Positions 29,261-52,341 of a stretch of 64,000 bases of DNA are shown here, in pieces; position 1 is the first letter of the stretch; each line of letters begins with the position of its first letter. Position numbers and translations under genes: made by a program. The stretch lies in contig NC_043025.1 of the NCBI RefSeq assembly GCF_006345805.1, positions 6,758,001 through 6,822,000 on the forward strand, read 5' to 3'. Source of the DNA: Octopus sinensis (taxonomy: Eukaryota). Under the pieces are notes generated by a model. It worked only from the letters and a program-made list of their open reading frames with translations, did not search any database and was not told the origin of the DNA.

Positions 29261-29291
<31 letters not shown>

Positions 29292-29483: not shown

Positions 29484-29526
<43 letters not shown>

Positions 29527-29536
29527 CTCATAATAC

Positions 29537-29571
<35 letters not shown>

Positions 29572-30789
29572 TATATATATATATTTATCACACAGACATG
29601 CATTATATACACAAACACACACATATGTATATATATATATACACACACATATAAAAGAAACAAAAAAAAAGCCAAAAGCAAGCACAGAAATATCTTTGAA
29701 ATATTTTTGCTAAATAATTGAGCAAACCATAATAAGAACAACAACAACAACAACAGCAATAATGGTTTCACAATAAGCCTATTGTCTGTGTGAATAACTA
29801 TTCATAATTCTATTTATTCCTCTTATTGTCCTCCCTTTATCTCTTCCTCCAATGTCACAACCATTTACATCCTCCATTTCTCAACCGATTGTTTCCTGTC
29901 TTTGCTTTCAGTCATTGTTATTTCTTTTGTATTCCTCCATCTCCATCCTCCTCTTCCCAACCATTTCATCATTATTCACACAATTATCTCCTGCCTTCAT
30001 CCATTTATTTCCCTCACTTTACACTCATTCTCTCCATCTTCATTTTCCTTTGTCTTCAATTTTCTCCCCACCGCTTCTCTTCTTTTATATTTCCTTTTTG
30101 TTTTAACTTCATCTTATTTTTGTTTTTTTCCTTTCTTTCTTTAATCTTTTCCTCGTCTTCTTTTCCTTCTTCCCTTTGTCTTCATTTTTTTCCTCATCAT
30201 TTTGCTTCTCCACTTCCCACCGTCTCCTTCCATCTTATTCCCCTGCTTCTTTTTCCTTTTCTCCCTTGTTCTTCTACGTCATCTTCTCCAACTTCTCTTC
30301 CTTGCTGTTCTTATTTCACCTGTGTTCTATTTTCTACTGACTCCACCTTATCAACTTTACACACACACACAAACATCTCTCTCAAGAACATTTTCTTCTG
30401 ACTCTCAACCATCATTTCACAGCTATCTATTCAAGAAAAACATTAACCAACATTTACATGGCGCCAATTTTTCTAATCTTGAAGAGCCCCAAAATCCATG
30501 GCTCCATTCTCTACCACCAGACCAATCCATCAACAAACCTCCATATCAAAACCCTGTGGGTTCCTCCTTATTCAGCCACCATTTTTTACTGCTTTCTTTA
30601 AAATATTTTCTTCATCCTTCAAATAAGATTTTTCACTCAAACTCTTCTCTTCTGACCTTTTTCTCTTAATCTCTGCCTTTCTCTCAGCATAGCATGTCGG
30701 ACAAAATGCTTAGCAATATTTCACCCATCGCTGCGTTCTGAGTTCAAATTCCATTGAAGTCAATTTTGTCTTTCATCCTTTCGGGATTA

Positions 30790-32200
30790 TCATCATCGTT
30801 TAACGTCCACTTTCCATGCTAGCATTGGTTGGACGATTTTGACTGAGGGCTGGCAACGAAATGGCTGCACCATCTCCAGTCTTGATCTGGCAGAGTTTCT
30901 ACAGCTGGATGCCATTCCTAACGCCAACCACTCCGAGAGTGTAGTGGGTACTTTTTACATGCCACTGGCACGGGGCCAGTCAGGCGGTACTGGCAACGAC
31001 CTCACTCAAATCCTTTTACACATGCCACCAGCACAGGTGCCAGTAAAGCGACATTGGTAACGATCACGCTCTGAGTTTCTACAGCTGGATGCCCTTCCTA
31101 ACGCCAACCACTCCGAGAGTGTAGTGGGTACTTTTTATGTGCCACCAGTACAGGGGCCAGTCAGGCGGTACTGGCAATGACCTTTCTTGAATCTTTTTAC
31201 ACGCTTTCCATGGGTTTGACGATTTTGACTGAGGGCTGGTGAGCCAGATGGCTGCACCAGGGTACAATCTCGATCTGGCAGAGTTTCTACAGCTGGATGC
31301 CCTTCCTAACGCCAACCACTCCGAGAGTGTGATGGGTACTTTTTATGTGCCACCAGTACAGGGGCCAGTCAGGCGGTACTGGCAATGACCTTGCTTGAAT
31401 CTTTTTACACGCTTTCCATGAGTTGGACGATTTTGACTGAGGGCTGACAACCACATGGCTGCGCCAGGCTCCAGTCTTGATCTGGCAGAGTTTCTACAGC
31501 TGGATGCCATTCCTAACACCAACCACTCCGAGAGTGTAGTGGGTGCTTTTTACATGCCACTGGCACGGGGGCCAGTCAGGCGGTACTGGCAACGACCTCG
31601 CTCAAATCCTTTTACACATGCCACCAGCACAGGTGCCAGTAAAGCGACATTGGTAACGATCACGCTCTGAGTTTCTACAGCTGGATGCCCTTCCTAACGC
31701 CAACCACTCCGAGAGTGTAGTGGATACTTTTTATGTGCCACCAGTACAGGGGCCAGTCAGGCGGTACTGGCAATGACCTTGCTTGAATCTTTTTACACGC
31801 TTTCCATGGGTTGGACGATTTTGACTGAGGGCTGGTGAGCCAGATGGCTGCACCAGGCTGTAATCTCGATCTGGCAGAGTTTCTACAGCTGGATGCCCTT
31901 CCTAATGCCAACCACTCCGAGAGTGTAGCGGGGGCTTTTTATGTGCCACCGGCATGGGGGCCAGTCAGGCACTACTGGTAATGACCTCGTTCAAATCTTT
32001 TTACACGTGCCAGTGAAGCGACTTTGGTGCCCTTGTACGTGCCACGGGTACGGAAGCCAGTTGGCTGCTCTGGCAACGATCACGCTCGGATGGTGCTCTT
32101 GGCACCCTACTAGCACAGGCATGAGTGCCAGTAAGGCGACGCTGGTAACGATTATACTCGAATAGCTGCTCTGTCAATGATCACACTCGTATGGTGCTCT
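30790..32200 (-). repeat. RTE 3'UTR-derived repeat cluster with a 596-bp higher-order duplication
   Basis: 31071 matches 31667 and 31201 matches 31797 (offset 596). Confidence 0.85.
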
Positions 32201-33193
32201 TTGCACCCCGAGTACTGGAGTTGATGTCATCGACTCCTCCTCCTAATTGCAGGCCTTGTGCGTTTAGCAGAAAGTATTATTATTATCATAATTATTTTTT
32301 TAACCATATAGGCACAGGAGTGGATGTGTGGTAAGAAGCTTGCTTCCCAACCACATGGTTCTGGGTTCAGTCCCAATGCGTAGCACCTTGGACAAGTGTC
32401 TTCTACTATAGCCTCGGGCCTTGTGAGAAGATTTGGTCGATGGAAACTGAAAGAAGTCCATCGTATATCTATATATGTGTGCGTATAGGCGCAGGAGTGG
32501 CTGTGTGGTAAGTAGCTTGCTTACCAACCACATAGTTCCAGGTTCAGTATCACTGCGTGGCACCTTGGGCGAGTGTCTTTTATTATAGCCTCAGGCCAAA
32601 CAAAGCATTGTGAGTGGATTTGGTAGATAGAAACTGAAAGAAGCCTGTTGTATGCGCATATATATATATATATATATATATATGCATGTTTGTCCCCCCC
32701 ACCAACATCACTTGACAACCGATGCTGGTGTGTTTACGTCTCCATCACTTAGAAGTTCAGCAAGAGAGACTGATAGAATAAGTACTAGTCTTACAAAGAA
32801 TAAACTCTGTCCGGCGTGCTAATGATTCTGCAGTTTGCCCCCTTAATAATAATATCTGAATAAAAGACTAACTGGTCACGACTGGAACGTCTACTGAATG
32901 GGGACTGGCCTGTGGCTAAACAACAACAGTAACAAGGTAAGGCACATTAAATGATATAGTCCTAGATACACAAATTGCATTCCAAGAGGAATAAGATGCA
33001 GGGCTCTGTTAGAACAGCTTTGATCATAGGTATGTTGGATCAGAACTGACCCAGGGCTAAACGGCAAGATATATTTACGATTCATTAAACAACTGTAATT
33101 AAGAGGATGTTTTTTTATTAAGTGAAATACAGTTTATAGAATATAAAATATACAATCAACTGATATTATATACACACACATATAGACATACAT

Positions 33194-33226
<33 letters not shown>

Positions 33227-33811
33227 CATACATTCATACACATAGTTGTCTTTTGCATCAATGTTGTGTGTGTGCACGTGAACACACACATATTTAAGTG
33301 TGCATTTATATATACATACATTATATATATATATGACATATATATATATAAATATTTACATGTATGTATATATCTATATATGTACTTACAAATACATATT
33401 ATGTTTATGCAAATGTTATGAATGTTTGCTTGTGTGTGTATGTATACATATACACATATATATATATACACATATACATAAATATATATATATACATATA
33501 CATACATATATACATATACATACATACATATATATACATATACATACATACATATATATACATATACATACATACATATATATATACATATATACATACA
33601 TATACATACATATATACATACATATACATACATACACATACATACATATACATACATACATACATACATACATACATACATACACATACATACATACATA
33701 CATACATATATACATATACATACATACATATACATACATACATATATACATATATATATATATCTCAAGTATATATAAAGTCAGTTGATTGGGTAGTTGG
33801 AATTCTTCTTT

Positions 33812-33880
33812 CAAGAAATATTTTTTTCGGATCTTGCTAACTCCACGGAGCTTCTAGCAAGTTCTTCATACATTTACAGG
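33812..33880 (-). promoter_or_regulatory. Type II SECIS element of SELENOK
   Basis: aaatgt ATGAA GAACTTGCTAG AAG CTC cgtg GAG TTAGCAAGATC CGAA aaaa atattt: AUGA/GA core, 11-bp helix II, apical AAG plus mini-stem. Confidence 0.88.
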
Positions 33881-34149
33881 CACAGCTGCAAGGCTTCTGG
33901 TAAAAGAAGGATTCCTTTGGGTTTGTACATATGTATCCAGATGGTCCTCGACTAATGAGGAAACAGGGAGAAGGGTAGGGAGTGGTATGGGAGTGGGGAG
34001 GTGATGGGGGACCGTGGCTTGACCCCCTCCAGATGCTGCTGGAATCAAGCCAGGAAGAATATACAAGAACGTGTGGTGACACGTGTCCTCCTCCGTTCTA
34101 ACATGTTTGATGGTGTTAAACTCTGAGTAACATCTGTTGTAGCTGCTTA

Positions 34150-34760
34150 ATACTCAGGAGAATTCTAGATTAATCAGAAGCTGAAGCTCAAAGCAACTGG
34201 TGGACTGGCTAGATTAACCTAAATCTCAAGTTCACAGCATCTTGTGTACCGATCGAATTAACCAAAACAGATTCTCATTGCATCTGGTGACCCAGATTAA
34301 CTAAATGCTGGAGCACTTGGCAGGATGGACTAGCCAGAGCAACCAGAAGCTAGAGCTCAAAGTACCTGGTGAACAAGATTAACTAAAAATTGGAGCCCAC
34401 AGCATCTGGCCAATTTCACCAAAGACAATCTCCTAAGCATCTGGTGAACTAGATCAACCAAAAGCTCATAGCATCTATCAGGGTGGACAGGTTAGATTTA
34501 CCATAACCTGAAGCTTAAGGCTTAAATCTGGTAGACTGGCCAATTTCATCAAAATCCAGAGCTCAAAACATCTGGTAGACTAGATTAACCAAAAGTTGGA
34601 GCTAATAACATGTGGCAAGATGGTCTGTTCAACACAACCAAAAGCTGGAGCTTAAAGTATGTAGTGGATTAAGCAGAGCAGGAGCTCAATGCATCTGGTG
34701 TAGTGGCTAGATTAACTACAAGTTACACTCATATCATCTAGATTAGTACAGATGTAAAAA
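34150..34760. repeat. Degenerate ~40-45-bp minisatellite inside the SELENOK 3'UTR
   Basis: Recurrent AGATTAACCAAAAGCTGGAGCTCAAAGCATCTGGTGGACT-like units. Confidence 0.7.
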
Positions 34761-35002
34761 TGTTGATCACTCCAGATGACCAAAGTTACTTTTGAAATCA
34801 TGGTAGAGGGGGAGGAGGAGGAGAAGAAGAAGAAATTTTTAAAATGTTACAAAATCAGAGGAGAGAGAAAGAGGAAGATAAATGGGGAGTAGGGTGAAGA
34901 GGAGGGGGAGGAGAGGAAGAGGGTTTAGTAGAATTACTGTTTCCTGATTAGTGGGGACCATCTGAGGCAGTCTGTGGTCTTTTTAAGACAGCAGACTGCC
35001 TC

Positions 35003-35096
35003 CTAACCTCATCCACCTCCACTCATCGGTGGGGGACCAGGTATGTCACCGTCAAAATTTAATCTGCCCATGCGCCGCCTTGGAGGGGGTGGTGGG
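35003..35096 (-). CDS. SELENOK: Selenoprotein K, coding exon 5 (Sec codon at 35009-35011)
   Basis: tttttatttttcag|; (G)PPPPPRRRMGRLNFDGDIPGPPPMSGGG-UGA-G-TAG matches the SelK C-terminus PPRRMGRI...PPPMAGGUGR. Confidence 0.95.
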
Positions 35097-35461
35097 CTGA
35101 AAAATAAAAACGGGAAAAAATTTATAAACAAGAATGTAAATTAATAACATGTATAGTTATGTGTACATATGTGTATGTGTGTATAATGTGTATATATATG
35201 TGTGTGTGCTTGTGTGTATATATATATAGAGAGCAATAAGAAAATGGAGGGGATGAATAGGTGGTTCATCAACTTCAGTCTACTGGAGAAATAAAGGTAG
35301 AATGAGGTATTTTTACCTCTTGGCTGAAACAGCTGTAAGTTATTTTCCTATTGCGTGGCTTTTAAGCTAGCTCCTGTGGAGGGCTCTTCATTAGGCCTTG
35401 GGCCCAACAATGACACGTCATGCATTAAGTACATATAAAATTTTAGTAAACTTCAACAATA

Positions 35462-35870
35462 GGCGCAGGAGTGGCTGTGTGGTAAGTAGCTTGTTTACCA
35501 ACCACATGGTTCCGGGTTCAGTCCCACTGCGTGGCACCTTGGGCAAGTGTCTTCTACTATAGCCTCGGGCCGACCAAAGCCTTGTGAGTGGATTTAGTAG
35601 ACGGAAACTGAAAGAAGCCTGTCGTATATATATGTATATATATATGTATTTGTGTGTATGTTTGTGTGTCTGTGTTTGTCCCCCTAGCATTGCTTGACAA
35701 CTGATGCTGGTGTGTTTACGTCCCCGTCACCTAGTGGTTCGGCAAAAGAGACCGATAGATTAAGTACTGGGCTTACAAAGAATAAGTCCCGGGGTCGATT
35801 TGCTCGACTAAAGGCGGTGCTCCAGCATGGCCGCAGTCAAATGACTGAAACAAGTAAAAGAGTAAAAGAG
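35462..35870 (+). mobile_element. Full-length tRNA-SINE of the main family (further copies e.g. 37257-37661 +, 48053-48436 +, 52872-53280 +, 27555-27972 -, 45683-46385 -, 50445-50825 -)
   Basis: tRNA-like head, internal (TA)/(TG) tract, 3' half ending GAAACAAGTAAAAGAGTAAAAGAG. Confidence 0.92.
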
Positions 35871-37668
35871 AATATTTTTCAAGCAATGAACAATTTTCAT
35901 CGAAACAATGATATAATTTGGAAATTATTGCAAAGCTGCATGATAAACAACAGTACCACCACCATCACCACCACATCTGCTATACACACACATCAGACTT
36001 CTGATGCCACCACCACCAATACCTTTGACTTCGCCGCCTTCCCCTCCACCACCACTGTCTTTTACATCGCTTACTCTCACCGTCATCCCTGACCACTTCG
36101 GCTACCACCATCACCTCCACCTCTATCACAACTACAGCTCATACTATTACCATCACAAAAAGGCTTAATGTGTGTGTTAGTCCAATATGTTAGTTTAGTG
36201 TTCAGTCCCTCCTTCTCTCTCTCTTATTATTACTCCCACCGCCACCATCAACACTACTACTTTTAATAAAACATCATCAACTCTCCCTCTCTTTTCTTTT
36301 TCTCTGTCTGTCTGTCTGTCTTCGCCACTGCCCTCACCATCTGTATGCCTACTAATACTCTCACCCAAATATGAGCAACAGTAGAAGTGTCATTGAATAG
36401 TGAGAGGAGGGGGGGGCAAAGTTTGACACACTGACACACAGAAATTAGTTTTTGCATTCATTAGATATATATATATATATATACATCATCATCATCGTTT
36501 AACGTCCGCTTTCCATGCTAGCATGGGTTGGACGGTTCAACTGGGGTCTGGGGAGCCCAAAGGCTGCACCAGGCCAGTCAGATCTGGCAGTGTTTCTACA
36601 GCTGGATGCCCTTCCTAATGCCAACCACTCCGAGAGTGTAGTGGGTGATTTTATGTGCCACCGACACAGGTGCCAGACGAGGCTGGCAGACGGCCACGCT
36701 CGGATGGTGTTTTTTATGTGCAACCGACACAGGTGCCAGACGAGGCTGGTGAACAGCCATGATATATATAAGGGTAAAAATCCTCTTGAGACATGAATGA
36801 CCACAGGATTGCAACTAGAAAGCTCCCCTCAGAGGCACAAGCCCAGGCAGAGTTGTTTATGGAAGACCAGTAGACGCCCATGCACACCTGCCTTCCCTCT
36901 GTGTGACCAATGTTATCCAAGGGAAGAGGCAAAGGGACCGATACAGCTTGGCACCAGTGATGTTGAAACTCATTTCTACAGCTGAGTAAACTGGAGCAAC
37001 ATGAAATAAAGTGTCTTGCTCAAGAACACAACTCACAGCTCAATCCAGGATTCGAACTCACTACCTCATGGTTGTGAGCCTGACACTTTAACCACTGAGC
37101 CATGTGCCTTCACATCTGTTCTCAATGTCATTTTGAAAAATAAATAATCACATGACTGAAATCTGAAAGCTTTGAGATAATGCAGGATTAATTGAAAACA
37201 ATGTGAATAAATAAAGGAGCAAAGTGTATGTACTCCGCTATTTATGTATATATATAGGCGCAGGAGTGGCTGTGTGGTAAGTAGCTTGCTAACCAACCAC
37301 ATGGTTCCGGGTTCAGTCCCACTGCGTGGCACCTTGGGCAAGTGTCTTCTGCTATAGCCCCGGGCCGACCAATGCCTTGTGAGTGGATTTGGTAGACGGA
37401 AACTGAAAGAAGCCTGTCGTATATATGTATATATATGTATACATATATATATATATATGTGTGCGTGTATGTGTGTGTCCCCCTAGTATTGCTTGACAAC
37501 CGATGCTGGTGTGTTTACGTCCCCATAACTTAGTGGTTCAGCAAAAGAGACCGATAGAATAAGTACTGGGCTTACAAAGAATAAATCCCAGGATCGATTT
37601 GCTCGACTAAAGGCGGTGCTCCAGTATGGCCGCAGTCAAATGACTGAAACAAGTAAAAGAGTATATAT

Positions 37669-38035
37669 AATACAAAATGAGTCAAGAACGCAAAACATCC
37701 GGACAACTAGGTGATACAAAAAGGGACAACAAAACATCCAGATAGACGATACAAAAAAACAAGAATGGGTCATTCAAAGCCCTGTATCCTCAGTCAAGCA
37801 CCAGATTATCCTTGCAATTTCGGCTGATTATTCTTGAAATAATAATAATAATCAAGAAATAATAAGCAAGAGTAGTCAGCCGAAATTGCGAGGATAATCT
37901 GGTGCTTGACTGAGGATAGAGGTCTTCGAATGACCCGTCCTTGTTTTCTTTGTATCGTCTATCTGGATGTTTTGTTGTCCCTTTTTGTATCACCTAACTG
38001 TCCGGATGTTTTGCGTTCTTGTCCCATTTTGTATT
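37669..38035. repeat. Long inverted repeat (~168-bp arms, ~30-nt AT-rich loop)
   Basis: 37669-37836 is the imperfect reverse complement of 37867-38035. Confidence 0.9.
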
Positions 38036-38534
38036 TTATATATGGTGAAGCACAACCTTCGAACTTTAGGTCTCACTGAGGAAATGACTAGAGACCGAGA
38101 CCTTTGGAAGTGTGCTGTGCTTGAGAGGACCCGGCAGGACAAGTGAGACCATAACCCGGGATGTGCCAGTCCACTTATGCATACCTTTCCTTCTGGGGAC
38201 ACAAAACTCTACTTGTGAAGACCTGTTGAGACAAGTGAGAATTGAAATCGATCAACATCAATGGAAATTGCAGCTGTGATACCAGTGCCGGTGGCATGCA
38301 AGAGAACCATCTGAACGTGGCCATTGCCAGCGCTGCCCCGACTGGCCTCGTGCCAGTGGGACATAAAGAGCACCCACTACACTCACGGAATGGTTGGCGT
38401 TAGGAAGGGCATCCAGCCGTAGAAACGTTGCCAGATCAGACTGGGCCTGGTGCAGCCTTCTGGCTTCCCAGACCCCAGTTGAACCGTCCAACCCATGCTA
38501 GCATGGAAAGTGGATGCTAAACGATGATCATCAT

Positions 38535-38816
38535 TCATCATTGTTCGACCGTGTTCGAGACAATGGAATTTACCATGCTACGCCAGACTACACGGTCCAT
38601 CATGGCATTACGGAGGTCCTGTTGCTGGATGCCTGTATCCCTGGAGATGACATCAGGGTAGGAGAGTGTGCGCCCTCTGGCATTGCGAGCAGATGGCTTC
38701 CAGAGGAGAAGAGTAGAAATTGCCTCGTTTTCAGATCTACAACAATGTCCAGCAAACTGGACTCTCCTACCTTTCACAAGAGATGAGACAGGTGGTAGTT
38801 TCCCATATATTTGCAT
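38535..38816 (-). mobile_element. RTE-like LINE 3' end (second family)
   Basis: QIYGKLPPVSSLVKGRRVQFAGHC...DLRNAMMDRVVWR; (TGA)n tail. Confidence 0.88.
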
Positions 38817-38987
38817 GATGATGATATATGAATAAATAAAGATTATATTTGATAGAGGAATCCGAATGCTGAAGGGTTAAACTAGTATGGTGTGTGGCAC
38901 AAATATAAACCCATCTAGCAAGGAGTTGAGGGTATGTGGGTGAGCAGTATAGGGCATGAAACAAATGTAATGAAGAAAGCTTCGACA

Positions 38988-39526
38988 TTAACCCTTTAGT
39001 ATGTAAACCGGCCAAAATATTTAATCTGTTTTATGTTCAAACTGACCAGATCCAGGCTCTCACACCTACCCTACAATGTTATTCTACATTAAGTAATTAC
39101 ACCATCAAGATCTTGAAGATATGAGATAATGCATGATTAATTCAAATCAATGTGTTTGATATACTTTGAGGGCGCGTGGCTTAGTGGTTAGGGCATTCGG
39201 CTCATGATCGTAAGGTTGTGAGTTCGATTCCCAGCGACGCGTTGTGTCCTTGAGCAAGACACTTTATTTCACGTTGCTCCAGTCCACTCAGCTGGCAAAA
39301 ATGAGTTGTACTTGTATTTCAAAGGGTCAGCCTTGTCACTCTCTGTGTCACGCTGATTATCCCCGAGAACTACGTTAAGGGTACACGTGTCTGTGGAATG
39401 CTCAGCCATTTGCACGTTAATTTCACGAGCAAGCTGTTCCGTTGATCGGATCAGCTGGGACCCTCGTCGTCGTAACCGGCGGAGTCTTTAATGTTTGATA
39501 GAATAATCAGAACACTAAAGGGTTAA
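38988..39526. mobile_element. piggyBac-type MITE interrupted by a SINE
   Basis: TTAACCCTTTAG...CTAAAGGGTTAA ends; SINE at ~39169-39487 with tgtttgata on both sides. Confidence 0.7.
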
Positions 39527-39580
39527 ACAGAAGATATATGAACAAGCACAAAAAGAAATGTGTATAGACAGAGTACTTAC

Positions 39581-39633
39581 CCTCGTCCATCTGATCGGTA
39601 GCCGCCACTACCGTCGTGCTGGGTTGAGTTAGG
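39581..39633 (-). CDS. SELENOK: Selenoprotein K, coding exon 4
   Basis: ccttgcag| PNSTQHDGSGGYRSDGR GG|GTAAGT; phase 0 to 2; DGRG motif of SelK. Confidence 0.92.
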
Positions 39634-39901
39634 CTGCAAGGTAGACAATGGGAAAATGAAAAGATTTATAAATAAGAAAAGTTAATGCAATTAAAAGTAA
39701 AATGTTAAGAATAGGTGCAGGAGTGGCTACGTGGTAAGTAGCTTGCTTACGAACCACATGGTTCTGGGTTCAGTCCCACTGCGTGGCACCTTGGGTAAGT
39801 GTCTTCTACTATAGCCTCGGGCCGACCAATGCCTTGTGAGTGGATTTGGTAGACGGAAACTGAAAGAAGCCCTTCGTATATGTGTGTGTATATGCATGTA
39901 C

Positions 39902-39979
<78 letters not shown>

Positions 39980-40098
39980 GCATGTGTGTATATGTTTGTG
40001 TGTCTGTGTTTGTCCCCCCCCCCAACATCACTTGACAACCGTGGAATACAAACAAACAATTGTATTAGTATGGCGCTCAGGAATAGAAATAGAACAAG

Positions 40099-40136
40099 TC
40101 TTTTACATTTCGAGCCTACGCTCTTCGACAGAAAGA
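40099..40136 (-). ncRNA. Degenerate minimal hammerhead motif
   Basis: tcttt CTGTCGA a gagc gtag gctc GAAA tg TA aaaga; A6 is mutated. Confidence 0.5.
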
Positions 40137-40192
40137 TACACAGAAAAAAAAACAAGGAGAGAAAAAAATGCGTGTAGGATCTAACGATCTAT

Positions 40193-40256
<64 letters not shown>

Positions 40257-40714
40257 TACATGCAATAATTTTATTCAGCTGAATACACGTCATTGATTAG
40301 TTGAAATTACTGAAATATGAGAACTTTAACATGAAATAACTTCGTAAATATAAGTTTTTCTCAAAAATGCTAATAGTAAAAAGATGTTTTATATGACACA
40401 TTCTACCATCGTCCGAAGTTTGAAAGCGTTTAGTTACAAAAAATTATTTTTTAAATCTGTCAGTCAAAAGGTAAAGATCCAATTTTTTTTTAAATTCTTG
40501 CGATTATCTCCCCTTCTTAAGTGGAAATCGCCTTAATTGCCACTCGGCAATTTCTGATACAACTTCCAGAGGCAAAGATAATATTAATAAAACCTGAATT
40601 TATCATGTGGTATTTGACATACCAGTATCTGCCTACATTATTCAAATACATGCCACTGAGTTACTTCCCTTAGCTCATTTCTATTTAGAGATGCAGACAC
40701 CCCATGTACAATAA

Positions 40715-41600
40715 CTCCTATATGGGTTATATGGCTCAGAAACCTGGACGTTATCAAAGAAGCTTGAGAGGCGGTTGGATGGAACCTACACTCGCCTCCT
40801 TATGAGAGCTCAAAATCTCTCATGGAAGCGCCATCCAACCAAAGTACAAATATATGGGAAACTACCACCTGTGTCATCTCTTGTGAAAGGTAGGAGAGTC
40901 CAGTTTGCTGGACATTGTTGTAGAGCTGAAAAAGAGGTAATTTCTAATCTTCTCCTCTGGAAGCCATCTGCTCGCGATACCAGAGGGCGCACACTCTTCG
41001 AGAGGCAGTTGGATGGAACCTACACTCGCCTCCTTATGAGAGCTCAAAATCTCTCGTGGAAGCGTCATCCAACCAAAATGCAAATATATGGGAAACTACC
41101 ACCTGTGTCATCTCCTGTGGAAGGTAGGAGAGTCCAGTTTGCTGGACATTGTTGTAGAGCTGAAAAAGAGGTAATTTATACTCTTCTCCTCTGGAAGCCA
41201 TCTACTCGCGATACCAGAGGGCGCACACTCTTCGAGAGGCAGTTGGATGGAACCTACACTCGCCTCCTTATGAGAGCTCAAAATCTCTCGTGGAAGCGTC
41301 ATCCAACCAAAATGCAAATATATGGGAAACTACCACCTGTGTCATCTCTTGTGAAAGGTAGGAGAGTCCAGTTTGCTGGACATTGTTGTAGAGCTGAAAA
41401 AGAGGTAATTTCTGCTCTTCTCCTCTGGAAGCCATCTACTCACAATACCAGAGGGCACACACTCTCCTACCCTGATGTAATCTCCAGGGATACAGGCATC
41501 CAGCAACAGGACCTCCGTAATGCTATGATGGACTGTGAAGTCTGGCGTAGCATGGTAAATTCCATTGTCTCGACCATGATTGAACAATGATGATGATGAC
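40715..41600 (+). mobile_element. RTE-like LINE 3' end with in-frame 234-bp triplication
   Basis: YGSETWTLSKKLERRLDGTYTRLL...; units start at 40766, 41000 and 41234; (TGA)n tail. Confidence 0.9.
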
Positions 41601-41794
41601 AATAACCTCCCTGAAGACAACAGATGATGATTTAAAACTTCTTTACATATTAGAGAGGGGGTAATTAATTAAGGGGAGTAATTGTCCTGATACGATGGCT
41701 TCTTTCAGTCTACAAATCCACTCACAAGGCCTTTTTTCTGCCTTGGACCACAAAAGATACCCCGATAGACTGTGCAAGCAGACTAAACACAGTT

Positions 41795-42920
41795 TTAACA
41801 TAATGTAGTCCTAGATACATTATATCTGAATAAAAGACAGGATGGTCACGGCTGGAACATCTCTGAACGTAAGTCTGCTGGATCAGGACAGACCTGGTGT
41901 TAAACAGCAACAAGGAATGACACAGTAAGTAATTTAGTCCTAGATGCACTATGTTTGAATAAAAGACAGGATGATCATAGTTGGAATGTCTTTGGTCATA
42001 AGTCCGCTGGACAAGGACTGACCTGGGGCTAAACAACAACAACAGGGAAGGACACATTAGATAACATAATCCTAGATACACTATGCCTGAATAAAAGACA
42101 TGGTGGTCACAGCTGGAACATCTCTGATCATAGGTCAGCTGGATCAAGAGAGACATGACTAAACAAGGACACATTAGATAATGTAGTCCTAGATACACTA
42201 TGATCGCATATAAGACATGATGGTCACAGATGGAACGTTTTTGATCATAGGTGTGTGCACTGGGTTGATACTGATGCTCTGGGCTAAACAACAATGAGGA
42301 AGGACACATTAGATAATGTAGTTCTAGATACACTTATGTCTGAATAAAAAGTAGGATGGTCACGGCTGGAACATCTCTGATCGTAGGTCTGCTGCACCAG
42401 AACTGACCTGGGGCTAAACAGCAACACCAATAAGTAAGGGCACATTGGATAATGTAGTCCTAGATACACTATAATCGCATATAAGACAGGATGGTCACAG
42501 CCAGAACATTTTTGATCATAGGTGTGTGCACTGGGTTGATACTGATGCTCTGGGCTATACACTAATGTCTGAATAAAAGACAGGATGGTCACGGCTGGAA
42601 CATCTCTGATCATAGGTCTGCTGCACCAGGATTGACCTGGGGCTAAACAACACCACCAATAAGTAAGGGCACATTGGATAATGTATTCCTAGATACACTA
42701 TGTCTGAACAAGAGACAGGATGGTCATAGCTGGAACAACCTTGATCATAGGTCTACTGGATCAAAATGACCTGGGGTTAAACAATAACAGCAACACAGGA
42801 TACAGTGATGTCCAAGATATACTATGTTTATATAAAAGACAGGATGGTCAGAGCTGGAACACTTTTGATCATAGCTCAACCTACAGGAGCAAGGATGATG
42901 ACCTGGTGTTAAACAACAGG
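41795..42920. repeat. Degenerate ~120-bp satellite (also 48893-49215, 32855-33065, inverted at ~12480-12610)
   Basis: Repeated GACACATTAGATAATGTAGTCCTAGATACACTATG...AAGACAGGATGGTCAC. Confidence 0.85.
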
Positions 42921-42948
42921 TTGAATTATAATAAAAAATTTCACTTAC

Positions 42949-42967
42949 CGATATTAATGTCTTGAAA
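42949..42967 (-). CDS. SELENOK: Selenoprotein K, coding exon 3 (19-nt microexon)
   Basis: Long pyrimidine tract ...cctgatgcag|T TTC AAG ACA TTA ATA TCG|GTAAGT = (F)FKTLIS, matching SelK FFKTL. Confidence 0.92.
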
Positions 42968-43072
42968 CTGCATCAGGAATGAGATCGATATAAAGAGAGA
43001 AGAAAGGGAAAAGAAAATAGGATTTTAATAAATTAACATATTTCATAATACATTATAATAATTTATAATAAA

Positions 43073-43450
43073 CAAGCACTATCACCCGGCGTTGCCCGGA
43101 TTTGTAAGGGAAATAACTATAAAGCATTTTTAGAGAGTTATAGCCAAAAAATGCATTAAAATTGGAAAAAAAATTATGGTAAATTTTTTTTTAAATCGTT
43201 GACTCATCGTAGATATTTTTAGAGAGTTACTTCCCTTATATTTAAAAAAAATTTTGCATTAAAATGGAAAAAAATGATGGTAAATTTTGTTTTAAATCAT
43301 AGACGCGCGCTAATACCCAGAAGGGCTCGATATGAATCACGACTATAAGATACCCGGTTTTAGTTACACTGCACCGCAAAATGTGGGAGTAGTTAGGAAT
43401 CTAAATCATAGAAGACAGACAGCACACAACCTTACTTTTATATATAAAGA
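43073..43450 (-). mobile_element. Non-autonomous Helitron-like element
   Basis: 5' a|TCTTTATATATAAAAG; 3' hairpin CCGGGCAACGCCGGG followed by CTTG|t (degenerate CTAG). Confidence 0.65.
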
Positions 43451-44920
43451 TTATATTCAGTTTATATTATAATCAGGTAGAGGATAGCATATGCCGAATG
43501 AATTTCTAAGACGTTACAATGTGATTTGAGGGAGACTTAGCTGCTATTTCTATAAGCATATAGCTATCATATTGAGCATAAAAGATTTTATTCTTTTACT
43601 TGTTTGTCATTTGACTGCGTCCATGCTGGAGCACCGCCTTTTGGTCGAGCAAATCGACCCCGGGACTTATTCTATCGGTCTCTTTTGCTGAACTGCTAAG
43701 TTACAGAGACGTAAACACACCAGCATCGGTTGTCAAGCGATGTTGGGGAGCGGGACAAACAGACTCACAAACATATACATATATATGATGGGCTTCTTTC
43801 AGTTTCCGTCTGCCAAATCCACTCACAAGGCTTCGGTCGGCCCGAGGCTATAGAAGAAGACACCTGCCCAAGGTGCCACACAGTGGGACTGAACCCGGAA
43901 CCATGTGGTTGGTAAGCAAGCTACTTACCACACACCCACTCCTGCGCCTAGATTTTGTTAAAGTTTATGAGCAATAAATTGGTTATATTTTTGTAATATA
44001 CAAAATTATTTATCAATTTTTTTAATACAGTTCCTTATAATATTTTACTATAAATATATAATTTTGTTTTAAACACTGTTTGGCTAGGAGGGTCCATCCA
44101 TATAAAATAGAAATCAAAAGGATCCAGGGGTAAAAAAATGGTTGAGAAACGCTGATGTAGGGGTTTTCCTTGTTGGCTCATACATGTATACCTTCATAAG
44201 ACAGTAGTGTGTGATTTGAAGGAGATTTGGCTCCTATTTCTACCAGGTGTAGCTACCTTGTAAGGGTCTCCTTCATTGGCTCAAAGCATCAAGTGCTGAA
44301 AATGAACTTTCTTATCTTCCATTTTAAAGGGTTACAGAATTAACAGTTTCATCATCAGCATCTTCGTTTAGTGTCCGCTTTCCATGCTAGCATGGGTTGG
44401 ATGGTTCGACTGGGAAGCCAGAAGGCTGCACCAGGCTCAGTCTGATCTGGCAATGTTTCTACGGCTGGATGCCCTTCCTAACGCCAACCACTCCATGAGT
44501 GTAGTGGGTGCTTTTTACGTGCCACCAGCACAAGTGCCAGACGAGGCTGGCAAACGGCCACCATCAGATGGTGCTTTTTACGTGCCACCAGCATGGGGGC
44601 CAAGTGAGGCTGGCAAACGGCCACCATCAGATGGTGCTTTTTACGTGCCACCAGCATGGGGGCCAGGTGAGGCTGGCAACGGCCAAACATAAACCTTCTT
44701 CCATGAAAAGATAGCTTAAACTGTGCTCTAAATGGAGGTGTAGTCAAATCCTATTTTATGGACTCAAACATGTTGTAAAATAAGTCAAAAGGTAAGCTAC
44801 AATAAATTGGCATGAACTTTCCGGACAACCCAATACAAATGTAGAGCTTTTCTTGCCCAAGGTGTCATGCTTTTTACCACATAGCCATGCCTGCACCTAT
44901 ATGTTGATGGATTAGAGATC

Positions 44921-45517
44921 GCGGCGAGCTGGCAGAAACGTTAGCACGCTGGGCGAAATGTGTCGCCGTATTTCGTCTGCCATTACGTTCTGAGTTCAAA
45001 TTCCGCCAAGGTCGACTTTGCCTTTCATCCTTTTGGAGTCGATAAATTAAGTACCAGTTACGCACTGGGGTTGATGTAATCGACTTATTACCTATGTCTG
45101 TCCTTGTTTGTCCCCTCTATGTTTAGCCCCCTGTGGGTAATAAAAAAATAGGTATTTCGTCTGTCACTACGTTCTGAGTTCAAATTCCGCCAAGGTCGAC
45201 TTTGCCTTTTATCCTTTTGGGGTCGATAAATTAAGTACCAGTTACGCACTGGGGTTGATGTAATCGACTTATTACCTATGTCTGTCCTTGTTTGTCCCCT
45301 CTATGTTTAGCCCCCTGTGGGTAATAAAAAAATAGGTATTTCGTCTGTCACTACGTTCTGAGTTCAAATTCCGCCAAGGTCGACTTTGCCTTTCATCCTT
45401 TTGGAGTCGATAAATTAAGTACCAGTTACGCACTGGGGTTGATGTAATCGACTTATTACCTATGTCTGTCCTTGTTTGTCCCCTCTATGTTTACTACCCT
45501 TGTGGGTAGTAAAGAAA
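44921..45517 (+). mobile_element. SINE-like family GGCGAGCTGGCAGAA with three tandem ~185-bp body copies (doublets at 53519-53932 + and 28200-28615 -)
   Basis: GTTCTGAGTTCAAATTCCGCCAAGGTCGACTTTGCC repeated three times. Confidence 0.85.
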
Positions 45518-46105
45518 CAGATTAGAGATTGCCAGCAGCTTTTCAGTTCCTGAGTTGAAGGTAACAACAGAGGAATGTCTGTACAGATTGAAGGAACTTG
45601 GTCTAAGAAGATCTTCATTAAGGAGAACAAAGCTGAAACATCAACCATGAAACAACAGGGAGGTCAAGCAGCCCCCACAATACTCTTTACTCTTTTACTT
45701 GTTTCAGTCAATTGACTGCGGCCATGCTGGAGCACCGCCTTTAGTCGAGCTAATCGACCCCAGGACTTACTCTTTGTAAGCCTAGTACTTATTCTATCGG
45801 TCTCTTCTGCCGAACCGCTAAGTGACGGGGACGTAAACACACCAGCATCGGTTGTCAAGCAATGCTAGGGGGACAAACACAGACACACAAATACATATAT
45901 ATATATATATATATACATATATACGATGGGCTTCTTTCAGTTTCCGTCTACCAAATCCACTCACAAGGCATTGCTCAGCCCGAGGCTATAGCAGAAGACA
46001 CTTGCCCAAGACGCCACGCAGTGGGACTGAACGCGGAACCATGTGGTTGGTTAGCAAGCTACTTATCACACAGCCGCTCCTGCGCCTATATATATATACA
46101 TATAC

Positions 46106-46137
<32 letters not shown>

Positions 46138-46161
46138 GCATATATACATATATATATATAC

Positions 46162-46228
<67 letters not shown>

Positions 46229-46439
46229 CATATATACGACAGGCTTCTTTCAGTTTCCGTCTACCAAATCCACTCACAAGGCTTTGGTTGGACCGAGGCT
46301 ATAGCAGAAGACACTTGCCCAAGACGCCACGCAGTGGGACTGAACCTGGAACCATGTGGTTGGTAAGCAAGCTACTTCTCACACAGCAAGCCCTGTGCAA
46401 TGAGAAAATCCAGTAAAGAACTGATTCGAAAGTACTTAC

Positions 46440-46524
46440 AAAAGAATGATAACACCCACCAGTGCATACAGGACCTCTGGAATGATTGACAGCCGCCATG
46501 GAGACCTCGAAGATACTATGTTAC
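46440..46524 (-). CDS. SELENOK: Selenoprotein K, coding exon 2 (transmembrane segment)
   Basis: ccattttag| (G)NIVSSRSPWRLSIIPEVLYALVGVIIL TT|GTAAGT; SPWRLS is the SelK signature; phase 1 to 2. Confidence 0.95.
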
Positions 46525-46857
46525 CTAAAATGGTAAAAGAAGAACGAAAAATGTGATTATCTTTCTGAGTTCAAAGAATTTGGAATTGAAATATTTTGTG
46601 ATTACATCATCAAGTGCTTTATTCCTGGATGTGTATATAGAACCTGACTGGATTAGAACTAGTCATCTTTCCAGTCTGAACCAGTGGTTCCCAACCCGAG
46701 ATATACGGACCCCTGCTGGGTATCCATGAACAAAATTTCACACACACACATATGTATATATGAGTGTGTGTGAAATTTTGTTCATGGATACCCAGCACTA
46801 TATATATATATATACACACACACACATATATTTTTTTTTAACCAAAATATATATATA

Positions 46858-47779
46858 TCATCCCCCAAACCATGACACTTCCTCCACCGAATTTAACACT
46901 AGTCTTAAGGCATTTAGGCGACAATTTTTCACCTACTTTTCTACGAACGTACCTTTTCCGATCTGAGCCAAATAACATAAACTTAGATTCATCACTGAAA
47001 TGCACCGTTTGCCATTTTTCTTGAGACCACAACACATGTTCAGTTGCAAAGGTAAGACGACACTTTTTATTCTTGGAGCTGATCAGTGGCTTCACTGCAG
47101 GTGCTCTTGCTTGTAGGTTATGTTCAACTACACGATGAGACACAGTTTTTCGAGATAACGTTTTCTTCAGTACAATGCTCATTTCCCCGAGAAACAGCAG
47201 CAGCAGTTTTAAATCTGTCCATTTTAACCAACTTTACCATAACACGATCTTCTCTCTTGGTTGTTTTTCTTGGCCTACCTGTAGACTTTCTTCTTTCACA
47301 CGAACCACAATCATCGAAGACCTTAAGAATACCGTGAACAACACTTTTTGACTTGTTAACAATCTTTGCAATAGACCTAATACTTAAATTATCCTTCTTT
47401 CGAAGCTTAATCTGCTGACGAATTGGTAACGGAGTAAGTGGCATTATATTAACAAAGTACACTGCAGATATTCTTACTAATGTTTAGTAAACATACCATT
47501 ACGTAAACAATTTCAAAACATTAGAGTTCGCCGGTTAAATATACTAAAACAGAGTAAAAGCAACCGTTCTGATCATTTTGGCCGCCATGGGTTTTGCAGT
47601 AAATCACTAAATCATCCATAACTTTTGTATTATCCTCTCAAATTACACCAAAATCTCAGACAATAACAATTAATATCGTATTTATTGTCTGTGAAAATTA
47701 TAGAACAGAAAACAACTTTGATAAAAACTTATACCTACTTTTCTGACGAAAACAACGCCGTTCTGAACATTTTGGCCGC
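46858..47779 (-). mobile_element. Truncated Tc1-family transposon (5' half), frameshifted
   Basis: HTH + GRPRKTT, ARAPAVKPLIS, WQTVHFSDESKF, KFGGGSVMVWG; 22-bp direct repeats at 47564-47585 and 47758-47779. Confidence 0.92.
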
Positions 47780-50700
47780 AAAAAAAAAAAAAAAAAAACG
47801 GATGTAATTGTTGGCGTTTAGATGTAAACTTCCGGTTGGTTTGCTTTTATTTACATCCGGTTCGATCCATGAATCAGCAAAATGAAAATCGATTGATTTC
47901 TAATCGAACGTTAAGAGGCCAAAGTTTGATTGCGTGAAATTGCCCCCCCCCCCCATGTTAAGATGTTGAATAAGAATGAAGCTATCCATGTTGACTGAAA
48001 ATTTCAAGAAATAAAATGGTAAAACATGGTACTTGCAAAAGTTCTTGTAAAAGCGCAGGAGTGGCTGTGTGGTAAGTAGCTTGCCTACCAACCGTATGGT
48101 TCCGGGTTCAGTCCCACTGCGTGGCACCTTGGGCAAGTGTCTTCTACTATAGCCTCGGGCCGACCAAAGCCTTGTGAGTGTATTTGGTAGACGGAAACTG
48201 AAAGAAGCCCGTCGTATATATGTGTGTGTGTGTGTGTATGTGCCCCTAGCATTGCTTGACAACCGATGCTGGTGTGTTTACGTCCCCGTCACTTAGCGGT
48301 TCGGCAAAAGGGACCGATAAAATAAGTACTACTGGGCTTACAAAGAATAAGTCCCGGGGTCGATTTGCTCGACTAAAGGCGGTGCTCCAGCATGGCCGCA
48401 GTCAAATGACTGAAACAAGTAAAAGAGTAAAGAGAGAATTCTACCCTGAACTTGTACGGGACTTTGTAGATCAGTGTTTCCCAACCTTTTTTCCCGGCGC
48501 CCCACTTTTTCATAGCAAAAGTTTTTACGCCCCACCTTGTACAAATATTTTCGTCATGTACAAATATTTTCACAGCCCACGTCTATGCCCCGCGCCCCAC
48601 CTGAATTTTCTCAGGCCCCACCTTGGGAATCACTGTTGTAGATGGTCTTTGATATCTATCGAACACCAACTTAGCTGTAAGCTTGATTATTCTGGACTGA
48701 TCGACGATTTCACGATGCGAAAAGTGCCACATGTTTGTCTTTGAGAATTGCCTGGATTATAAAAGTGCTTTTTTTTTATTCATATCAGGAAGTTTTACTT
48801 ATTGAAATTTGGAACAGACCTGAATATATATTTCTTTTACTGCCCACAAGGGGCTAAACATAGAGGGGACAAACAAGGACAGACAAACATATATCAAGAG
48901 AGACATGACTAAACAAGAAAGGACACATTAGATAATGTAGTCCTAGATACACTATGCCTGAATAAAAGGCAGGGTGGTCACAGCTGGAACATCTCTGATC
49001 ATAGGTCAGCTGGATCAAGAGAGACATGACTAAACAAGGTCACACTAGATAATGTAGTCCTAGAAACACTATGCCTGAATAAAAGACAGGGTGGTCACAG
49101 CTGGAACATCTCTGATCATAGGTCAGCTGGATCAAGAGAGACATGACTAAACAAGGTCACACTAGATAACGTAGTCCTAGATACACTATGATCGCATATA
49201 AGACAGGATGGTCACTTAAACGGATTAAGTCGATTATATCGACCCTAGTGCATAACTGGTACTTTATTTATCGACCCCGAAAGGATGAAAGGTAAAGTCG
49301 ACGACGGCGGAATTTGAACTCACAGCGTAAGACAGATATTCAACTTGTACTTCAAAAGATGTTCTTTAGGATAACGTGAAATATTGAACTTTAGATAGAA
49401 TAAAGTAAAATATAGCTAAGAATAAAAGGTGCGTCAATGATGAATTTTGATTGAAGGGATGGGACCTCTAAAAGGCATGAATGAGCTGCACATTGGATAT
49501 ATTTTTATATACAAGATCCTTGTATGTATCTATGTCATGTCAGATATGATTTTTTTTTATTGCGTAGTTAAAAAGGAAGTCAGTCGCGGATATACTAATT
49601 AAACGTTTATTGAAGTTAATCGATATTTAATCAACAAGGCAGAGCGACACAGGTGTGTTTTGGACGAGGAGAAGTGATGTGCAGGCGTGGCTGAATGGTT
49701 AAATTTCCCAACCACATGGTTCCGGGTTCGGTCCCACTGCGTGGCACCTTGGGCAATTGTCTTCTACTATAGCCTCGGGTCGACCAAAACTTTGTAAGTG
49801 GATTTGGTAGACGGAAACTGAAAGAAGCCCGTCGTATATATATATATATATATATATACACACGTATAGGCGCAGGAATGACTGTGTAAGTAGCTTGCTT
49901 ACCAACCGCATGGTTCCGGGTTCAGTCCCACTGCGTGGCACCTTGGGCAACTGTCTTCTACTATAGCCTCGGGTCGACCAAAACTTTGTGAAAGAAGCCC
50001 GTCGTCTATGCCTGTATGTTTTTGTTTACCCTCCATTCGTCTAGTTGACAACGGGTGTTGGTTGGTTTGTTTACGTCCCCGTAACATAGCGTGTACGTTA
50101 GACTACGAACCAGACCGCGAAACTTCGGTATAGGTACACGCGTGACTTTGTTTACATTTCTGAAGATAACAGAAACCCTTTTCTCTCACCCCTAACACAA
50201 ACCCTAACTCAACCACCCCCATATATAAAAAAACAAAACACTTTCTTGAAATGTTTCCGGTACCTATACCGAAGTTACGCCAGCGAGACGAAAGATTGCC
50301 CTACAAAGTTATGTGTGTACCTATACCGAAATAACTATTCCAAGTAATTGTGCGTACCAAACTTTACGTTGGGTTTCCCCATGTGACTATAAAATTGACG
50401 CCGCTTTAGTTCAGTGTTACCCCCTATGGTCTACACAGAAGGGTCTCTCTTTACTTGTTTCAGTCATTTGACTGCGGCCATGCTGGAGCACCGCCTTTAG
50501 TCGAGCAAAACGACCCCGGGACTTATTCTTTGTAAGCCCATTACTTATTCTATTGGTCTCTTTTACCGAACCGCTAAGTGACGGGGACGTAAACACACCA
50601 GCATCGGTTGTCAAGCGATGCTAGAGGGACAAACACAGACACACAAACATATATACATATATACGACAGGCTTCTTTCAGTTTCCGTCTACCAAATCCAC

Positions 50701-50863
50701 TCACAAGGCTTTGGTCGGCCCGAGGCTATAGTAGAAGACACTTGCCCAGATGCCACGCAGTGGGACTGAACCCGGAAACATGTGGTTGGTTAGCAAGCTA
50801 CTTACCACACAGCCACTCCTACCTAAATTTAATAAAAAAAGGGAGCGAAAGACGGAAACTCAC

Positions 50864-50882
50864 CTTCAGAGACATACACCAT
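50864..50882 (-). CDS. SELENOK: Selenoprotein K, coding exon 1
   Basis: ATG GTG TAT GTC TCT GAA G|GTGAGT = MVYVSE(G), matching SelK MVYISNG; a possible acceptor at 50969-50970 suggests an upstream UTR exon. Confidence 0.93.
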
Positions 50883-51374
50883 CTCGTGCGTCGTGTAGGA
50901 GAGAGTACAACGTGGAGTACAATGAAGAGTACAGCACGAAGGACGACGTTAACTGTTTGAAGTTCTTCCTGGAAATGATGACGATTCGAAGAAGGTAGAA
51001 CAATTGTCACTTCACATACAAAAGAGTGTATATATATATATATATATAGTAAAGGATGTAGGAGGGAGGTAACTCTAGCGAAACGTCGAGAAATGCGGGA
51101 GGTCGATACGTGGTCGTTCAAACTGTTAGAAATAGCAGCCAAATCTTTTTTTTTTTTCATTTTTACATACTACGGTCTTTATGTGTATGAAGTGATGCGG
51201 GAGACCTCTCGACGGTTTGCTAGATGTGGTAGAAATAGAAATGAAATCGTCCCTCAGATCTCACCTTACTGATGTATGTATGTATGTATGTATGTATGTA
51301 TGTATGTATGTATGTATGTATATATATATATATATATATGCATGTATGTATGTATGTATGTATGTATGTATGTA

Positions 51375-51409
<35 letters not shown>

Positions 51410-51750
51410 TTGTTTGTTTGTTTGTTTGTATGTATGTGTGTGTATATATATATATATATATATGCATGTATTATGTATGTATGTATGTTTGTGTCTATGT
51501 ATGTATGTATGTATGGTGTATGTATGTATATATATGCATGTGTATGTATGTATGTATGTATGTGTGTGTATTATATATATATATATATATATATTGCATG
51601 TATGTATGTATGTATGTAGGTATGTATGTATGATGTATGTATGTATGTATGTGTGTAATATATATATATATATATGCATGTATGTATGTATGTATGTAGG
51701 TATGTATGTATGTATGTATGTTTGTTTGTTTGTTTGTTTGTTTGTATGTG

Positions 51751-51785
<35 letters not shown>

Positions 51786-52341
51786 TGCATATATGTATGT
51801 ATGTATGTTGTGTGTATGTATGTATATATATATATATGCATGTATGTATGTATATATGTATGTATGTGTCTATGTATGTATGTATGTATGTGTGTATGTA
51901 TGTATATATATGCATGTATGTATGTATGTGTGTATGTATGTTTGTGTGTGTGTATGTATATATATATATATGCATGTATGTATGTACGCATGTATGTATG
52001 TATGTTTGTGTGTATGTATGTATATGCATGTATATATGCATGTATGTATGTATGTGTGTGTGTATGTATGTATGTATGTATGTATGAGCAAGACCTCTAC
52101 AACGTAGCTAGACCTGGTAGAAATAGCAGCCAAATCTCTCTCAAATCACACCTTACTTTCTTATGTATGTAAAACATCTATGAGCCAGTGAAAAACACCT
52201 CTACCTGGTAGAAATAGCAGCCAAATCTCCCTCAAATCACACCCTATTGATGTGATGGGATACTTGTGTGGTTATTCCTCCTACTAGAAATAGCTGCCAA
52301 ACAACACAGAATTGAAACCTTACTATACTAACAACAACCGT

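Follow-up and report, generated by a model that had tools for sequence, protein, structure and literature searches.

Do the short exons scattered between positions 50882 and 35003 of a 64,000-nt stretch of Octopus sinensis DNA (hereafter the window) encode a complete selenoprotein K (SelK, SELENOK), and is the TGA near the end of their reading frame read as selenocysteine (Sec)? The first-pass annotation had proposed five exons of 19, 85, 19, 53, and 94 nt with GT-AG boundaries and compatible phases. We enumerated AG-exon-GT candidates of these lengths and phases and then checked the boundaries, and the same chain was reproduced. All features of the gene are on the minus strand. Coding exon 1 (50864..50882, 19 nt) starts with the ATG at 50882 and is followed by a GTGAG donor. 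Coding exon 2 (46440..46524, 85 nt) encodes the bulk of a hydrophobic helix and alone matches the Pfam family SelK_SelG (E=0.0024). Coding exon 3 (42949..42967) is a 19-nt microexon that human SELENOK is not known to have. Coding exon 4 (39581..39633) is 53 nt long, and the 94-nt coding part of exon 5 (35003..35096) encodes a Pro/Arg/Gly-rich tail, the TGA at 35011-35009 (likely Sec88), Gly89, and the TAG at 35005-35003. The four introns are all GT-AG with GTGAG or GTAAG donors, their lengths are 4339, 3472, 3315, and 4484 nt, and their phases are 1, 2, 0, and 2. Together the exons (270 nt) give an ORF of 89 codons in which TGA is codon 88, followed by Gly and by TAG as codon 90, with no other stops. 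The first AATAAA 3' of the stop (33114..33119) is a candidate poly(A) signal and would make the 3' UTR ~1.9 kb long. This UTR contains a degenerate tandem repeat of ~42-nt units (34166..34716), to which the rest of the genome had no match at E<=0.001.

Over its 87 residues upstream of the TGA, the product shows no difference from XP_029653076.1 (P0003), an 87-aa protein of Octopus sinensis that carries the name selenoprotein K in RefSeq and is also UniRef100_A0A6P7TWA2. The Octopus vulgaris protein has four differences from the product, and orthologues are present in two other Octopus species. P0003 matched Pfam SelK_SelG (PF10961) with 76.6 bits against a cut-off of 23.3, over profile positions 1-86, and the spliced product scored 95.7 bits on a custom profile of 60 homologues from which P0001-P0004 were excluded. 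The proposed SELENOK identity was thus borne out, but the description of the gene as hidden was not, since RefSeq and UniRef already annotate and name it. The product also has the SELENOK layout of ~90 residues with a short N-terminus, one hydrophobic segment (Kyte-Doolittle peak of 2.4 starting at residue 18), and a Gly/Pro/Arg-rich tail (58% G/P/R), and it contains no Cys. There is a PxxPxR motif at residues 60-65, and P60, P61, P64, R65, and R66 are unchanged in all 22 aligned sequences.

When the genome was searched with P0003, the exons described here (contig C29) were the sole matches at E<1, and one intact SelK copy was found in the searches made. The best genome-wide Pfam match, at a candidate second copy (L001 on C19, E=3.8e-5), proved to be a Val/Ser/Gly microsatellite frame and was rejected. 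Membership of the SELENOS family was rejected as well, since SelK_SelG was the only Pfam match, with no SelS match, and the product has 89 residues instead of ~190 and no Cys. The PDB sequence search returned one match, which is meaningless (E=1.3). Pattern scans of metagenomes (pattern A2, 597 matches) and of viral contigs (pattern A3, 111 matches) gave no confirmed match. Few eukaryotic selenoproteins are as widespread as SelK (PMC2375036), and according to PMC12822975 the insect SelK is so divergent that a separate profile is needed.

Transcript support was obtained from contigs of reads from four runs, whose RNA label is a guess, and the comparison covered positions 33770-39850, that is 6,081 of the ~17,100 gene bases. 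In two of the four runs, X1 and X2, which came from two studies, the contigs join 39581 directly to 35096, leaving out exactly 4484 nt bounded by GT-AG, and thus the junction between exons 4 and 5 that the first-pass annotation had predicted is spliced in transcripts. Both contigs have 54 letters on the exon 4 side of this joint. Upstream of exon 5 the X2 contig has 72 letters; judging by the lengths, these are exon 4 plus exon 3. Downstream, each contig continues unbroken from 35096 to 33780 or 33770, and its letters show no substitution. Each has one gap within 33770-35096, outside the best 12 of the 15 indel rows, and this gap probably sits in the skipped repeat 34798-34841. Runs X7 and X20 had zero cover on exon 5 and the 3' UTR, to which we attach no weight because the records are filtered. 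The junctions of exons 1/2, 2/3, and 3/4 rest on protein identity and homology, while that of exons 4/5 rests on the spliced contigs.

UGA88 is likely read as Sec, because a type II SECIS-shaped hairpin lies downstream and the genome has tRNA-Sec genes. The hairpin (33817..33874) is placed 1.14 kb downstream and has an AUGA core (33869-33866), AA (33853-33852), an apical mini-stem, and GA (33828-33827); it is on the same X1 and X2 contigs as the exon 4/5 joint. A home-made SECIS pattern, drawn up after the candidate had been spotted by eye, matched once in the whole window on both strands, where 0.15 matches were expected, and 11 of 2000 shuffled UTRs gave a match. The folding z of the hairpin is modest (-1.2 to -2.0), and its score against Rfam SECIS_5 (17.1 bits, E=1.8) is below the cut-off of 50. 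Among the 78 matches listed in an Rfam scan of 28000-35200 (7.2 kb), which were mainly miRNA models on AT repeats, there was no SECIS family. In a detached copy of the hairpin on contig C9, two stem pairs are broken, and the SECIS scan does not match it. tRNA-Sec with the anticodon TCA was found at four of five genome loci checked. The octopus TGA aligns with the TGA after the Gly run in all four homologous loci that were read. Of 154 database homologues, 149 have Gly-Gly as their last two residues, and none contains U. The genome-wide pattern Gly-Gly-TGA-Gly-stop was uninformative (443 matches vs 368 for a control pattern). The human SelK SECIS is likewise type II, as described in PMC6844570. 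The codon position, the hairpin, and the tRNA-Sec genes support the penultimate Sec that had been claimed. The expected truncation by annotation pipelines was also found: the public Octopus proteins that the search covered have 86-87 aa and end with the glycines that precede UGA. Such stop-at-UGA errors are documented in C-terminal-Sec families including SELENOK (PMC12822975).

Taken as a five-exon gene that is transcribed, spliced at exons 4/5, and likely encodes an 89-residue SelK whose UGA is likely Sec one residue before the end, this reading has a probability of about 0.93. Since many AG-GT candidates of such lengths occur in the interval, the chain might be a chance assembly or a pseudogene. 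We give this almost no credence, because the product is identical to an independent RefSeq model with orthologues in two other Octopus species, the transcript contig is spliced, and no other intact copy was found. The exon chain is real and is not a product of chance. It is very unlikely, too, that the gene is SELENOK with UGA as a real stop, the 87-residue protein as its product, and the SECIS as a vestige or chance match. The public Octopus models do end at UGA, the Rfam SECIS score is under threshold, and Sec was lost from SelK in Drosophila persimilis (PMC2500217), but the intact AUGA-AA-GA hairpin is on the same transcript contigs while the C9 copy is broken, and tRNA-Sec is present. Moreover, TGA-Gly-stop is retained exactly at the TGA position of 4/4 homologues, and a permanent Gly-Gly end would act as a degron.

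The remaining alternative concerns the C-terminus, which might not be U-G-stop if there were an assembly base error by the UGA, or if splicing at a GT after the UGA gave U-G-R or another end. A GT does lie one base past the UGA, the mammalian SelK splice site adjoins the stop codon (PMC3316567), each contig has one unlocated gap, and the homologues end in U-G-R in 4/4 cases. Nevertheless, the X1 and X2 contigs are unbroken and free of substitutions from 35096 to 33780 or 33770, the best-supported rows contain no joint or indel at 35003-35011, and the site is without a long homopolymer. A different C-terminus is therefore very unlikely.

The octopus SelK ends in U-G-stop and not in the U-G-R end that is typical of SELENOK, though not defining, the family being characterised by a Sec close to its C-terminus. 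Drosophila SelG, the insect SelK, probably ends in U-G; the published wording fits such an end but is ambiguous. All four other SelK loci read, none of which is mollusc or other-cephalopod DNA, end in U-G-R-stop, and the extra codon also survives in a decayed copy of exon 5 within the octopus genome. Thus the U-G-stop end is likely derived from an ancestral U-G-R-stop in the octopus lineage. The sister protein SELENOS, human SelS included, normally has its Sec in the penultimate position (PMC7090344), and U-G ends in SelK may appear already in the supplement of PMC3473315 or in the alignments of PMC2500217 and PMC3316567.

The one lead that is of some interest concerns the hairpin that follows the stop codon. 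This proximal stem-loop (34964..35002) starts directly after the TAG, 6 nt after the UGA, and has 11-bp and 5-bp stems. Its folding gives a z of -4.6, which 0 of 200 shuffles reached, and in a second test 0 of 500 shuffles did so. Hairpins occur at the same place in the four homologous SelK loci too. Five non-mammalian SelK mRNAs thus share a hairpin in this position although their sequences there look unalike, which suggests that it is under selection. Human SelK also has a hairpin after the stop, smaller than that of the octopus, with an 8-bp stem; PMC6844570 states its function to be unknown and reports that its deletion was without effect in one reporter. It is possible, though doubtful, that animal SelK mRNAs use the post-stop hairpin as a recoding element that is conserved in structure and not in sequence. 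The octopus lineage would then have lost the terminal Arg codon, which would have turned the end into a Sec-Gly of the SelS/TrxR type and brought an unusually strong version of the hairpin to exactly 6 nt past the UGA, the distance at which the Sec redefinition element lies in SelN. There the hairpin might set the Sec insertion rate and the share of protein that escapes the Gly-Gly degron. The post-stop hairpins supply natural variants for a reporter test.

By analogy with the known eukaryotic Sec pathway, SBP2 would bind the SECIS and bring eEFSec and Sec-tRNA, and the ribosome would decode UGA88 as Sec, add Gly, and terminate at UAG. Translation may slow at this point because of the hairpin that follows the stop codon. 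As in mammalian SELENOK, residues ~18-36 would serve as the ER membrane anchor, and the disordered Pro/Arg/Gly tail with its PxxPxR SH3-ligand motif would bind the palmitoyl-transferase ZDHHC6 as well as the Derlin/p97/SelS ERAD complex. In mammals, DHHC6 is bound through the SH3 motif (bioRxiv 2021.05.15.444318), and Derlin and p97 are SELENOK partners (PMC10298544). The ER location and the ZDHHC6 and Derlin-p97 binding of the octopus protein are predictions carried over from mammals. Failed Sec insertion would leave the 87-residue form, whose terminal Gly-Gly would act as a C-degron of the KLHDC2 type, and therefore the protein level would track selenium supply. A Gly-Gly degron in SELENOK without Sec is described in PMC7090344.

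Most likely, the gene is an ordinary octopus selenoprotein K that is already known by name and whose public record is two residues short. As a discovery it has little weight, because SelK is widespread and the protein is already catalogued by name. Our literature search, which reached few subscription papers, found no octopus selenoproteome paper. In practice the result is useful for correcting the annotation, by the addition of Sec88-Gly89 and of the SECIS at 33874-33817.

XP_029653076.1 is the same gene product over all 87 residues, but the record ends at the UGA and is without Sec88-Gly89. With human and vertebrate SELENOK, the octopus product shares the family match, the short N-terminus, the hydrophobic helix, the disordered Pro/Gly/Arg tail, a Sec near the end, a type II SECIS, a stem-loop after the stop, and a Gly-Gly that is bared if Sec insertion fails. 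Human SELENOK has its Sec at position 92 of 94 and thus two residues after Sec, while the octopus product has one (bioRxiv 2021.05.15.444318). Furthermore, no intron adjoins the octopus stop codon, so the stop and the SECIS share one exon, whereas mammalian SELENOK has a splice site there (PMC3316567). SELENOS (SelS/VIMP) belongs to another family and has 189 residues compared with 89, and unlike SELENOS the octopus product lacks a Cys with which Sec could form a selenosulfide bond; the two have in common that they end in Gly-Gly-Sec-Gly and that a hairpin follows shortly after the UGA (SL1/PSL in SelS).

The minus-strand SELENOK gene of Octopus sinensis lies in animal intronic DNA rich in SINE-like repeats and microsatellites, within a genome of 2.72 Gb. 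Candidate exons between AG and GT were enumerated at the lengths and phases of the first-pass annotation, and their boundaries were then checked. The proposed chain was reproduced exactly in lengths, GT-AG borders and phases, with coding exons 1–5 at 50882–50864, 46524–46440, 42967–42949, 39633–39581 and 35096–35003 (minus strand, 270 nt in total) and introns of 4339, 3472, 3315 and 4484 nt, all four GT-AG. The only in-frame stops are codon 88 (TGA) and codon 90 (TAG), and thus the C-terminus reads Gly-Gly-Gly-(UGA)-Gly-stop. Mammalian SelK has an intron beside the stop codon, according to the available text of PMC3316567, whereas octopus SELENOK lacks it.

When the open frame around exon 2 was used as the query, one protein was matched, from Octopus vulgaris. 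Three named proteins fall in its cluster, among them XP_029653076.1 (87 aa), annotated as "selenoprotein K [Octopus sinensis]". Up to the TGA, the spliced product showed 0 differences from XP_029653076.1 and 4 from the O. vulgaris protein, and Pfam matched XP_029653076.1 to SelK_SelG (76.6 bits) and to no other family. Structure and identity were thus observed directly and agree with the first pass, but the gene that it called hidden is already annotated and named selenoprotein K, since the two products are identical. The observation is confirmed overall and its interpretation supported. Octopus SELENOK is already catalogued, and the family to which it belongs ranks among the most widespread of the selenoproteins (PMC2375036, in part); molluscan SelK is tabulated in PMC3473315, as far as the available text goes. 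In a genome search at E < 1, the exons were the sole matches to this protein. No second copy was found at this threshold, and the best Pfam genome match outside the gene is a microsatellite.

Other features were also found in the window. An exon-like stretch on the plus strand (~63330–63465) encodes a Peritrophin-A chitin-binding domain (CBM_14, E = 4e-12) and belongs to a neighbouring gene at the edge of the window. In SELENOK intron 3, three 234-nt tandem copies (40766–41465, 96% alike) form a 271-codon open frame on the plus strand with only weak, repeat-driven Pfam matches; by eye we take it to be like the tail of a LINE-type element.

The region 33770–39850 was compared with four sequencing runs. 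In X1 and X2 (from studies P1 and P2, both RNA by our guess), one contig per run jumps from exon 4 to exon 5 over exactly 4484 nt, with GT-AG ends, so that splicing of the last intron was seen directly. Past this joint, both contigs are unbroken through the stop codon and the 3' UTR beyond the SECIS, with zero substituted letters and one unlocated gap from exon 5 onward. In the region compared, the alignment reaches no further than the 5' border of exon 4. The X2 contig carries 72 letters upstream of exon 5, the combined length of exons 4 and 3, which we infer them to be. Of the transcript support on which the first pass had made its junctions depend, the exon 4/5 joint is covered, while junctions 1–3 are predicted from identity to the RefSeq model and from orthologues. 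Upstream of exon 5, the X1 contig carries a further 682 letters; ~506 nt of these would be 5' UTR (50883–51388) and, if colinear, would enter an (ATGT)n array at 51272–52086, unless they include an upstream non-coding exon.

UGA88 would be recoded as Sec by the established pathway. A SECIS scan of the whole window on both strands (AUGA, 11–13-nt stem, AA, GA; a home-made pattern written after the candidate had been seen) found one site, at 33869, 1142 nt past the UGA. The pattern matched 11 of 2000 shuffled UTRs, and 0.15 matches are expected per shuffled window. The predicted fold of the candidate is of type II, with an apical mini-stem, but Rfam SECIS_5 scored it 17.1 bits against a cut-off of 50, and thus it is unconfirmed by Rfam's own standard. 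A detached ~220 nt of this 3' UTR on another contig (C9:101092809–101093004; L011:4236–4505; 93% identical) includes the SECIS, with two stem pairs broken, and failed the scan. This copy also includes a far shorter version of the UTR microsatellite and runs on into the sequence 3' of it. Genes for tRNA-Sec with anticodon TCA were found at four of five loci checked, giving at least four: two inverted on C24, ~58 kb apart, and others on C6303 and C3 (L009, L010, L017, L018). Most animals have one such gene, and some octopus copies may be assembly duplicates. Octamer-like and TATA-like elements lie upstream of L009.

Four SelK loci were confirmed among 50 pattern matches in metagenome contigs; all four have TGA at the equivalent position, and in two the scan also detects a SECIS when ≤2 mismatches are allowed. 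The first pass had predicted truncation at the UGA, and XP_029653076.1 indeed stops there. Gly-Gly is the end of 149 of 154 fetched homologues, and U occurs in none (the collection may itself omit U-bearing records); truncation at the UGA is thus the norm here, which agrees with the reported concentration of RefSeq errors in C-terminal-Sec families, SELENOK among them (PMC12822975, in part).

The first pass did not mention a hairpin directly 3' of the TAG, 6 nt past the UGA (34964–35002; 11- and 5-bp stems). Its energy is −26.1 kcal/mol (z −4.6, 0/200 shuffles); none of 971 windows of 56 nt across exon 5 and the UTR folds more stably, and only 4 of 1275 windows over the gene span, itself included, reach this value. 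The four metagenome homologues also fold into hairpins in the first 45 nt past the stop, where the sequences look unalike; 20, 10, 2 and 0 of 500 shuffles folded as well (octopus, 0/500), and the weakest (L012) is unexceptional against its own downstream windows (35/222). The available text of PMC6844570 predicts proximal stem-loops in six of eight human C-terminal-Sec mRNAs, including SelK, a pattern that the present result extends beyond mammals. The role is putative: by the same text, deleting the human SelK stem-loop had no effect in a tagged reporter and its function is called unknown, while deleting that of SelS increased readthrough in cells. According to PMC3628699 (in part), the SelS stem-loop is stimulatory in vitro and the redefinition element of SelN begins 6 nt past the UGA. 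Between stop and SECIS, the transcribed 3' UTR holds a degenerate tandem repeat of ~42-nt units (34166–34716), with no genomic match elsewhere at E ≤ 0.001, and a second stable hairpin (34012–34056, minus strand, ~140 nt upstream of the SECIS; z −2.2, 6/200 shuffles).

By analogy with mammalian work, residues ~18–36 (hydropathy 2.4) would anchor SELENOK in the membrane, and the tail, which bears a PxxPxR motif with a core invariant among 22 aligned homologues, would be disordered. The protein would partner ZDHHC6 and the Derlin/p97/SelS machinery, and its Sec-less form would be removed via the Gly-Gly end. Octopus SELENOK has zero Cys, and therefore no intramolecular selenosulfide bond is possible.

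The penultimate position of the probable Sec, noted in the first pass, holds: codon 88 is TGA, followed by Gly and TAG. In human SELENOK, Sec is residue 92 of 94, two from the end (bioRxiv 2021.05.15.444318, in part). All four metagenome loci read U-G-R-stop, and the sole read-through database protein, from a starfish (P0093), ends C-G-R. The octopus end thus stands apart in a small sample (one of five loci at the DNA level, the other four possibly related). On C11 (37506590–37506800; L016:991–1201), the exon-5 end and the start of the 3' UTR recur as a decayed copy (71% identical) that reads TAA at the Sec codon, Gly, one extra codon and a final TAA. It keeps the post-stop hairpin despite several base changes (z −2.9), and no other SELENOK exons were found beside it in the 3 kb fetched. 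The extra codon of this one fragment suggests an ancestral octopus gene in which Sec was followed by two residues, one lost later. The analysis corrects the annotation by two residues and points to a probable, lineage-specific loss of the terminal Arg; it also hints at conservation of the post-stop hairpin across animals. U-G-stop is not a new kind of C-terminus: FlyBase wording on Drosophila SelG fits a U-G end, ambiguously (PMC4528330, in part), and human SELENOS ends in Gly-Gly-Sec-Gly (PMC7090344; PMC3628699; both in part), as octopus SELENOK probably does.
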